Source: a virus
Taxonomy: Duplodnaviria; Heunggongvirae; Uroviricota; Caudoviricetes
Virus record (IMG/VR): IMGVR_UViG_2541047435_000017
Direction: 5' to 3' (one strand)
DNA length: 6,926 nt
Part shown: positions 12 through 865 of the stretch, piece by piece
Layout of the letters: each line of letters starts with the position of its first letter
How positions within the stretch are numbered: the stretch's first letter is position 1
Notes under the pieces: model-generated
Databases searched by the model: none
What the model saw: the letters and a program-made list of their open reading frames with translations, nothing else
Told to the model about the DNA's origin: nothing
Position numbers and translations under genes: made by a program

Positions 12-230
12 TTAACGTGGGTATGTAATCATTCTGGCAATGCTTAATGCCGCTGCTTTTTCCAGATTGGTGATATCCTGCTCCAGAGCGGACAGATTTT
101 CAGCCTGCTTAGCCCTGGCTTCATTGGCCCATTTCAGGTCCTGCACCGCCTTAATTTTCTGGTGCATCCACTCATAAAGTTCATCATCGGTATAGTCTGG
201 CGCGATGATGACGGGGTCTCGTTTCTGCAT
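12..230 (-). CDS. hypothetical small phage protein (72 aa)
   Basis: ORF on minus strand with ATG at 230..228 preceded by a strong Shine-Dalgarno (AGGAG, 5-nt spacer; plus coords 236-240); stop TAG at 11..9. No family recognised. Lies downstream of and on the same strand as the repressor gene, where Qin carries the dicB operon and lambda carries rex. Confidence 0.6.
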   Translation of the reverse strand: MQKRDPVIIAPDYTDDELYEWMHQKIKAVQDLKWANEARAKQAENLSALEQDITNLEKAAALSIARMITYPR

Positions 231-302
231 GTCGGCTCCTTGTGGTTAGCGTTGCCTGCTTTTTAACCACGTCAGGCGAGGTGGTATCCTCTGAGGGGTC
301 TG

Positions 303-602
303 TTACTCGAGAGGAAATTGGTTATGAATACAATCAAGTTTTCTTGCCCAGAATGTGGTGGCTAAGTCTTTGACACATCCTTTAAGCCGCAGGGCTCTGA
401 CAGTTTCGCGGGAGCCATCTGCAAAAATTGTGGTCACCTTGTAACTGAAGATGAGTCCTCGCAGTTCGATGACGAAATCGTTGACAATATCTTCGGTGCA
501 CTCACCAGAGACTTTCTGAAGTAAAGGCGCATACCGCTTAGTTACCGCTCTGATAACTCTTACCTGTCCGGCAATGGCGCTGATATCAATATAAAGCGCC
601 AT
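303..602 (-). CDS. hypothetical protein (99 aa from first ATG; frame stays open about 46 codons further upstream to a TAA at 743..741)
   Basis: Uninterrupted minus-strand frame of about 146 codons, but the only ATG is at 602..600 and has no convincing SD. Arg codons are enriched in rare AGA/CGG. It is exactly codon-aligned antisense to a plus-strand zinc-ribbon ORF (324-522), so one of the two is probably a shadow ORF. No family recognised. Confidence 0.35.
   Translation of the reverse strand: MALYIDISAIAGQVRVIRAVTKRYAPLLQKVSGECTEDIVNDFVIELRGLIFSYKVTTIFADGSRETVRALRLKGCVKDLATTFWARKLDCIHNQFPLE
324..522 (+). pseudogene. small zinc-ribbon protein (CPECGG ... CKNCGH, Cys-x2-Cys-x21-Cys-x2-Cys, acidic C-terminal tail) interrupted by in-frame TAA at 363-365
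   Basis: ATG at 324 preceded by a strong SD (GAGAGGAA, AGGA at 313-316, 7-nt spacer). Translation is MNTIKFSCPECGG-stop-VFDTSFKPQGSDSFAGAICKNCGHLVTEDESSQFDDEIVDNIFGALTRDFLK, ending at TAA 520-522. Codon usage looks more E. coli-like than the antisense ORF, but the frame carries a premature ochre codon at codon 14. Confidence 0.3.
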
Positions 603-737
603 CGCTGTTTCTTTGCTGATCCCTGGACGCCTTCCATTCTGATGTTTGACTCGCCCACTGAGAAATCCTCTGCTTCCCCTTAACGCCGGGTAGCGGAACT
701 GTTTGCTGAGAACACCGTGCGGTGTCTTGATGAGTAG

Positions 738-767
738 AATTTAGAATAGCCTAAGAGTTATGGTCAA
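738..767 (-). promoter_or_regulatory. candidate sigma-70 promoter reading leftward (-35 TTGACC at 767..762, 18-nt spacer, -10 TAAATT at 743..738)
   Basis: Hexamers read directly on the minus strand about 100 bp downstream of the repressor stop; it could drive the leftward genes at 602-12. Spacer is 18 nt, slightly long. Sequence inspection only. Confidence 0.3.
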
Positions 768-865
768 GCTTTTTGTGTAGAAAAACCTAAGCTTCTTGAT
801 GTAAAAAACACAAGTATTTGAAAGTTTGTGCTTTTTATTACAGAGAGTTGCGAAAAAAAGGGGGG

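Follow-up and report, generated by a model that had tools for sequence, protein, structure and literature searches.

What are the two small open reading frames (ORFs) that lie beside the repressor gene of this phage, on the same strand, and under which control would they be expressed? The window analyzed here is the whole 6,926-bp stretch of phage DNA, and the segment in question covers its positions 12–865. Both minus-strand ORFs reported in a preliminary description of the segment were found: one of 72 aa at 12–230, well initiated behind the SD sequence AGGAG, and one of 99 aa at 303–602. That description had suggested, as a hypothesis, that they are lysogen-expressed cargo in a slot like that of lambda rexAB or the dicB operon of the Qin prophage. 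Our analysis does not support such cargo. With a probability that we put at about 0.85, the segment belongs to the early-left operon of a lambdoid prophage whose immunity is of the DicA/DicC type, and comprises the control region and the promoter-proximal part of that operon. The operon would be of the dicBF type first described in the Qin prophage of Escherichia coli K-12. It would be an already known and annotated variant of a well-studied operon and not a new defence locus, and the main value of the analysis lies in correcting the first reading.

The locus and its surroundings

Positions 1–1350 of the window match, with 100% identity, a lambdoid prophage that is located at ompW in many E. 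coli O157:H7 chromosomes. The PPompW phages, which are prophages integrated beside ompW, are 99.8% identical to these positions. Leftward from this point, the annotation of EC4115 gives an HTH repressor, a hypothetical protein of 99 aa, ydfC, a hypothetical protein of 135 aa, dicB, a DUF1482 (ydfD-like) gene, an exonuclease, an excisionase, an integrase and ompW. The genes dicF and dicB fall beyond the ends of the window and were examined in the source locus (L001), which is identical to the window. There dicB is annotated at 4624–4812, outside the window and in the orientation of the operon, and Rfam places DicF at 4987–5036, between the 135-aa gene and dicB, with 43.5 bits (E = 1.8e-7), a score below the gathering score of 48. 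An Rfam search of the window returned no match within 1–865.

On its right side the repressor gene is flanked by a P22-Cro/DicC-type regulator gene (1350–1577, plus strand; Pfam P22_Cro, E = 3e-13; annotated dicC), a YdaT-family gene, replication genes, the paa adhesin gene and hok/sok. The YdaT-family protein, identified with Pfam, occupies the cII slot of this prophage. RefSeq records the YdaT-family gene and fimbrial neighbour genes of the same prophage as frameshifted. A homologue of rem, the antirepressor gene, was sought at the right end of the window and is absent, the window being without the segment of EC4115 that carries rem.

The repressor gene and the gap behind it

The gene at 866–1273 (minus strand) encodes a DicA-family prophage repressor of 135 aa with an HTH_3 domain (Pfam, E = 4e-14). 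Over 131 aa it shares 63% identity with K-12 DicA (E = 6e-62), and in the PPompW phages it is annotated dicA. It lies directly upstream of the operon and on the same strand. Between the stop of the repressor gene (866) and the first operator (790) there are only about 75 bp, in which the repressor's strand has no ORF of 30 aa or more.

The preliminary description had seen no terminator after the repressor gene. This holds for a canonical GC-rich intrinsic terminator, none of which was found by a terminator scan of the minus strand between 603 and 865, but RNA folding reveals a weak, AU-rich array of A-tract, hairpin and U-tract (AAAAAGCACAAA-12 nt-UUGUGUUUUUU) behind the stop, at about 811–846 (minus strand). 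The hairpin has a centroid energy of -9.2 kcal/mol and a z-score of -1.9 and was not flagged by the terminator scan; it could serve as a weak terminator for the repressor transcript. With at most such a weak terminator in place, read-through from the repressor gene could give some lysogenic expression of the ORFs.

A leftward promoter with operators

The possible leftward promoter proposed earlier at 738–767 (minus strand) is upheld both by a promoter scan and by alignment with K-12 dicBp. The scan finds a sigma-70-like site on the minus strand, with TTGACC as -35 (762–767) and TAAATT as -10 (738–743), that agrees with the consensus at 9 of 12 positions. The -10 is mediocre, and the PPompW phages have TTAACC at the -35. 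Transcription is predicted to start near 731. An OL1-like operator, TTAGGCTATTCTAA (741–754, minus strand), which matches TTAGG-N4-TCTAA exactly, covers the spacer and -10, while an OL2-like operator, TTAGGTTTTTCTAC (777–790, minus strand), detected by the motif search and linked by an inverted repeat to 1299–1313, is placed just upstream of the -35. On the other side of the repressor gene, the dicA–dicC intergenic region contains three OR-like operators with the same motif (1275–1288, 1300–1313 and 1326–1339, plus strand).

When one mismatch is allowed, TTAG-N6-CTAA matches six times in the 6926 bp, and five of the six matches fall in the two intergenic regions that flank the repressor gene. 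These regions together span about 339 bp (4.9% of the window), and the probability of such clustering is about 1e-6 by a binomial estimate. In the refined form TTAGG-N4-TCTAA the two sets of sites have mirror polarity, the left set being oriented along the minus strand and the right set along the plus strand, and a repeat finder independently links the left and right operator regions.

The layout follows that of dicBp closely. In K-12, TTGACC is followed after 6 nt by TTAGTCATGGCTAA, with a degenerate site upstream; in the window, TTGACC is followed after 7 nt by TTAGGCTATTCTAA, and 9 nt lie between the -35 and the second site on its upstream side. The operator at 741–754 takes the position that TTAGTCATGGCTAA has in dicBp, and the TTAG of the operator at 777–790 aligns with the upstream site. 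The core of the window's operators is also the core of the K-12 operator Oc (TTGTTAGTCATAACTAACAA), which binds DicA in vivo and loses this binding through a single A-to-C change (PMC3441716). The operators and the alignment with dicBp therefore mark the region at 738–767 as a promoter of the dicBp or PL type, together with its operators. This repressor-controlled, PL-like promoter has both ORFs on its downstream side, in the place where lambda has N.

In K-12, dicBp is the only promoter found for the polycistronic ydfABC-dicF-dicB transcript, and DicA represses it about 22-fold (PMC10448788). According to the same paper, repression is relieved by an antirepressor (Rem), by stress or by spontaneous switching; the operon is expressed at a low level in stationary phase, and its expression is also detectable in a subpopulation of cells (PMC10448788). 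Judging from the operator architecture, the promoter at 738–767 would likewise be repressed in the lysogen: the DicA homologue encoded directly upstream would occupy the two operators that bracket it and shut the sigma-70 promoter. Upon derepression, transcription would run through a conserved leader and the frame-disrupted first gene, with its 99-aa core and poor ribosome-binding site, into ydfC, and would continue past the window through the 135-aa gene, dicF, dicB, the ydfD-like gene, the exonuclease gene, xis and int.

The conserved leader

The leader itself (674–732, minus strand) comprises a hairpin at 712–725 (ACACCG-CA-CGGTGT) and a box at 674–699 (GTTCCGCTACCCGGCGTTAAGGGGAA). It is nearly invariant with respect to the ydfA leaders of K-12 and mEp460, despite the differing promoters, operators and first genes of these operons. 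All left operons examined have the box, in the form GTTCCGCTACCC(C)GGCGTTAAGGGGAA, among them those of 640R1, Evi and the loci L011–L023. In L011–L013 a diverged copy of it stands ahead of a different first gene, and the upstream hairpin has one compensatory change. The leader goes with the left-promoter position and not with any given first gene.

A structured RNA was considered for this region and rejected, as the folding energy of the leader was no better than that of shuffled sequences (z = 0.1) and just one compensatory pair was seen. The leader may be a linker at a module boundary, a 5' stabiliser or part of a translation-initiation region.

The first gene and its frameshift

The preliminary description had recognised no family for either product. 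Families can be named, however: the 72-aa product is annotated YdfC and belongs to phrog_1744, while the 99-aa ORF (303–602, minus strand) is the core of a narrow family of enterobacterial prophages (WP_001240336, phrog_21318). The 99-aa product covers profile positions 1–99 of the 99 in phrog_21318 (E = 9e-67). The family counts 23 clusters in 5.8 billion proteins, and an exhaustive profile search of 1.84 billion representatives gave 10 matches only, all of them close relatives or fragments. Those members that carry an organism name are all from Enterobacteriaceae (E. coli, Klebsiella and Citrobacter). A profile search of genome contigs with the family alignment yielded no confirmed locus.

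Many members of the family are 118 aa long, which is the normal length. Starts were compared across 12 loci, including the window. In each of the 11 others the frame is open from a GTG located 57 nt upstream and preceded by the SD sequence GAGGA, with ATG in place of GTG in the most divergent locus (L014); in another of the 11 (L021) the internal ATG is replaced by CTG. The window alone among the 12 reads GGGCGAGTC as against GGGCGAAGTC, a 1-bp deletion at about 651 that splits the gene into an out-of-frame ORF of 32 aa (560–658, minus strand) and the 99-aa ORF. The 32-aa ORF represents the original start region of the 118-aa gene, with the GTG at 656–658 and GAGGA at 666–670. That the 99-aa ORF had looked ambiguous is well explained, because the deletion uncouples the core from its GTG start and SD sequence; the internal ATG (602) has a poor SD sequence. 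Relatives in Klebsiella and Citrobacter start naturally at the methionine equivalent to ATG 602, and the 99-aa core might therefore still be made.

The identical 99-aa sequence is found on at least 1000 contigs. Within the family, dN/dS is 0.84 when E. coli variants are compared with one another and 0.37–0.40 when the comparison is with the Klebsiella and Citrobacter relatives. The AF2 model of the core (pLDDT 71) has the order alpha-alpha-beta-beta-alpha, and no meaningful structural neighbours of this model were found. An N-like antiterminator was rejected as an identity for the first gene, given that the core is predicted to be folded and has no arginine-rich motif and that the leader is common to different first genes. 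A CII-like identity had no backing from sequence or fold.

In Klebsiella and Citrobacter the family member belongs to the rightward operon, where it follows cro directly and fills the cII slot, before the replication genes. It is conceivable, though we think it improbable, that the 118-aa family is an unrecognised early regulatory or host-takeover protein that acts from the first position of the left operon or from the cII slot, and that, alternatively or additionally, the leader is a cis-acting RNA concerned with 5' stabilisation, processivity or translation control.

YdfC and the searches for function

The second gene, ydfC (12–230, minus strand; SD sequence AGGAG at 236–240), carries the RefSeq name 'protein YdfC' and covers residues 1–68 of the 68 in phrog_1744 (E = 9e-39). 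Its product is 94% identical to YdfC of K-12 Qin (b1573), and its gene lies in the promoter-proximal part of the operon. Homologues of YdfC form 102 clusters, and those with an organism name are all from Escherichia (E. coli, and one E. albertii). The gene is intact, with a good SD sequence and a dN/dS of 0.17–0.52. In the AF2 prediction (pLDDT 86) the N-terminal 14 residues (MQKR-PVIIAPDYTDDE), which are conserved, are extended, and residues 15–69 form one long helix; a comparison with the BFVD structures gave no match, as is expected for a single helix. The literature on YdfC says just 'no known function'. Our best guess, drawn from the predicted model, is that YdfC may be a coiled-coil, protein-binding adaptor, for which the long helix and N-terminal peptide would be suited. 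When the K-12 operon was induced without dicF and dicB, with YdfABC still being made, neither growth inhibition nor filamentation followed (PMC5069750), which argues against YdfC being a toxin or division inhibitor.

Searches of Pfam, NCBIfam and PADLOC with both proteins gave nothing above threshold (for PADLOC, no match at E <= 0.1), and their PHROGs matches are to families of unknown function only. Profile searches of the PDB returned no credible match: the best E-values were 0.73 and 0.094, and the match at 0.094 was to designed coiled coils. The structure prediction and remote homology searches that had been recommended for both proteins led to no defence, Pfam or structural family. As a best guess, the products of both genes would be non-toxic early accessory proteins.

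The module in related prophages

The 118-aa gene and ydfC form a module that follows at least five different repressor types and is always co-oriented with a leftward operon that leads to dicB or kil and then to an exonuclease gene. Mosaicism of this kind is typical of lambdoid phages. The pairing is not obligate, since each gene is found without the other: L011 and L016 have a member of the 118-aa family without ydfC, and in K-12 ydfC is accompanied by ydfA and ydfB, with ydfA in first position as in mEp460. Some related prophages do have genuine cargo next to the repressor. L023 has a PaaR2-type repressor and paaA2-parE2, and then the 99-aa gene, ydfC and dicB, and L016 has a higBA pair between the repressor and the 118-aa gene. 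True cargo of this slot is accordingly distinct from the 118-aa module, upstream of which it is found.

Alternative explanations

The original proposal was that the ORFs are a lysogen-expressed pair for defence or lysogenic conversion (exclusion, abortive infection or division inhibition), transcribed with the repressor or independently of it, like rexAB. The homologies identify them instead as ordinary early-operon phage genes, an outcome that the preliminary description had itself named as refuting, and we now regard the proposal as very improbable, even though the ORFs do adjoin the repressor on its own strand with no strong terminator between, DicB and DicF of this operon type block division (PMC5069750), operon products are described as protecting the host from phage (PMC10448788), and the low-level stationary-phase expression of the K-12 operon would suit it. 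Against this, both ORFs are downstream of an operator-controlled promoter and not between the repressor and the operators, neither has a PADLOC, Pfam or NCBIfam match, and the K-12 operon was neither toxic nor filamenting on induction once dicF and dicB were removed. The lack of an obligate partnership between ydfC and the 118-aa family, and the position of genuine cargo (paaA2-parE2, higBA) upstream of the module in relatives, also tell against a dedicated pair.

Decay is a more serious possibility, if still rather unlikely in our estimation: the first gene would be effectively a pseudogene in a defective O157:H7 prophage, and the segment a hitch-hiking remnant without current function. A deletion unique among 12 loci that parts the core from GTG and SD sequence, the poor SD sequence at the internal ATG, the dN/dS of 0.84 among E. 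coli variants and the frameshifts flagged by RefSeq in the neighbouring YdaT-family and fimbrial genes all fit such a history. However, a core that begins where the Klebsiella and Citrobacter proteins begin could fold and function, its exact sequence recurs on at least 1000 contigs, ydfC remains intact behind a good SD sequence, with a dN/dS of 0.17–0.52, and promoter, operators and leader are intact. Position is what speaks for the 118/99-aa family being an early lysis–lysogeny regulator of CII-, CIII- or antirepressor-like kind in place of a passive accessory. The family always belongs to an early operon and adjoins the immunity region: in E. coli it is the first gene behind the left promoter, while in Klebsiella and Citrobacter it follows cro directly and fills the cII slot. 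This support is positional only, the protein has no HTH or other DNA-binding signature, the cII slot of the window's own prophage is already taken by a YdaT-family protein, and the gene is frame-disrupted here; a regulatory role seems improbable to us.

Within the preferred reading, that of an early-left operon of the dicBF type, three modest points are left over. The O157:H7 lineage has a frameshift in the first gene of the operon. The family of that gene is very narrow, is confined to prophages of Enterobacteriaceae and moves between left and right early operons, and prophages that differ in immunity have the short leader conserved among them. The operon's other products, DicB and DicF, have effects on division, metabolism and phage sensitivity; YdfC and the 118-aa protein are its uncharacterised members and mark a small gap in the E. 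coli y-ome.

Comparison with known systems

The slot had been compared with that of lambda rexAB and with the Qin dicB operon, and the two comparisons fared differently. In lambda, rexAB lies between cI and OL/PL and is transcribed with cI. The window's ORFs resemble cargo of the rexAB or paaR2-paaA2-parE2 type in that they adjoin the repressor gene and share its strand, but they are on the far side of the operators, downstream of the promoter that the operators bracket, and no similarity to defence or exclusion proteins was found with PADLOC, Pfam or NCBIfam.

The better match within lambda is the early-left operon, N-ral-sieB-cIII-kil-gam-bet-exo-xis-int, which is transcribed from OL/PL. Here as there, an operator-overlapped promoter lies just past the repressor gene and faces away from it, a mirror-image operator set is present at the right promoter, and the operon passes through a division inhibitor and then recombination genes before it reaches xis and int. 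Unlike lambda, the window has no N-like protein and no recognisable nut site, two left operators were found and not three, and the place of Kil is taken by DicF RNA and DicB.

The comparison with the Qin dicB operon is the one that stands, in the DicA homologue, the dicBp-like promoter, ydfC, dicF and dicB. The order in K-12 Qin is dicA, then dicBp-ydfA-ydfB-ydfC-dicF-dicB-ydfD. Window and Qin have in common a same-strand DicA-family repressor gene directly upstream, a TTGACC -35 with TTAG-N6-CTAA over the spacer and -10 and a second site upstream of the -35, and a nearly identical 5' leader of about 60 nt; the source genome and Qin further share dicF, dicB and a ydfD-like gene downstream. They differ in that the 118/99-aa gene replaces ydfA and ydfB in the window, and in that the source genome has an extra 135-aa gene between ydfC and dicF. 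Three left operators were reported for K-12, as against the two found here. The operators read TTAGG...TCTAA in the window and TTAGT...ACTAA in K-12, and the repressors are just 63% identical, a divergence that suggests a different immunity specificity. Unlike K-12 Qin, the source prophage has kept its exonuclease gene, xis and int.

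Left operon: first gene and leader

Comparison of loci placed an O157:H7-specific 1-bp deletion near position 651 (within 560-658), where GGGCGAAGTC has become GGGCGAGTC. It cuts the gene that opens the left operon off from its GTG start and SD. The 118-aa frame of this gene is intact in all 11 of the other loci examined.

Homologues of the 99-aa ORF, the core of this gene, are located directly 3' of cro within prophages of Klebsiella and Citrobacter (L007 and L009, 5001-5282 in each), occupying the cII slot with the replication genes next. This family is thus mobile between the early operons on the left and on the right. 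Of the related E. coli prophages, one carries a paaA2-parE2 toxin-antitoxin pair (L023, 677-1148) and another a higB gene with an HTH antitoxin (L016, 3057-3721), each in the true repressor-proximal slot and upstream of the 118-aa gene.

A short 5' leader is conserved at 674-732 of the window and in other loci (L003, 2940-2997; L004, 3501-3572; L011-L013, about 3010-3064), and is kept there even though the left promoters before it and the first genes after it differ. It consists of a hairpin, CACCG-CA-CGGTG, and a box, GTTCCGCTACCC(C)GGCGTTAAGGGGAA. One compensatory pair was found in the hairpin, and the folding energy of the leader did not reach significance.

Rightward operon and right end of the window

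The cII slot of the window (1561-2112) holds a YdaT-family gene as an intact 183-aa ORF; the counterpart CDS in the O157:H7 chromosome EC4115 is flagged by RefSeq as a frameshifted pseudogene. Further along, a low-GC island (29-40% GC, 4950-5964) contains a 252-aa adhesin gene of the Paa/AdfO (AcfC-family) type at 5206-5964, and is a moron-like virulence insert of the rightward operon. Ahead of the adhesin gene, about 4511-5044 is equivalent to a frameshifted fimbrial pseudogene in the RefSeq annotation of EC4115.

A sok antisense RNA (6153-6302; 104 bits, exceeding the gathering score) and a hok/mok-type toxin ORF (MKQQKAMLIALIVICLIVIVTALVTRKDLCEVRIRTGQTEVAVFTAYEPEE; 6243-6455), annotated as hokD in EC4115, follow. 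The IsrK-like RNA match just 3' of hok (6464-6545) is below threshold: it scores 27 bits (E 0.008), where the gathering score is 50. Identity between the window and EC4115 is 99.9% through 6549, after which about 430 bp of EC4115 are absent and 6550-6926 resumes at only 86.5% identity; the source of the window therefore differs from EC4115 on the right side. The skipped segment includes an 86-aa CDS labelled rem in records of PPompW phages (prophages beside ompW), and the window contains no Rem homologue.

Promoters and operators

The -35 of the left promoter (762-767) is TTGACC in the window versus TTAACC in PPompW phages from non-O157 strains, possibly a down-mutation. Within the dicA-dicC intergenic region, three operators lie evenly spaced, 25-26 bp apart, at 1275-1339, with a rightward promoter (TTGACT, 1291-1296; TAGTTT, 1314-1319) between and over them, a tripartite arrangement resembling that of OR.
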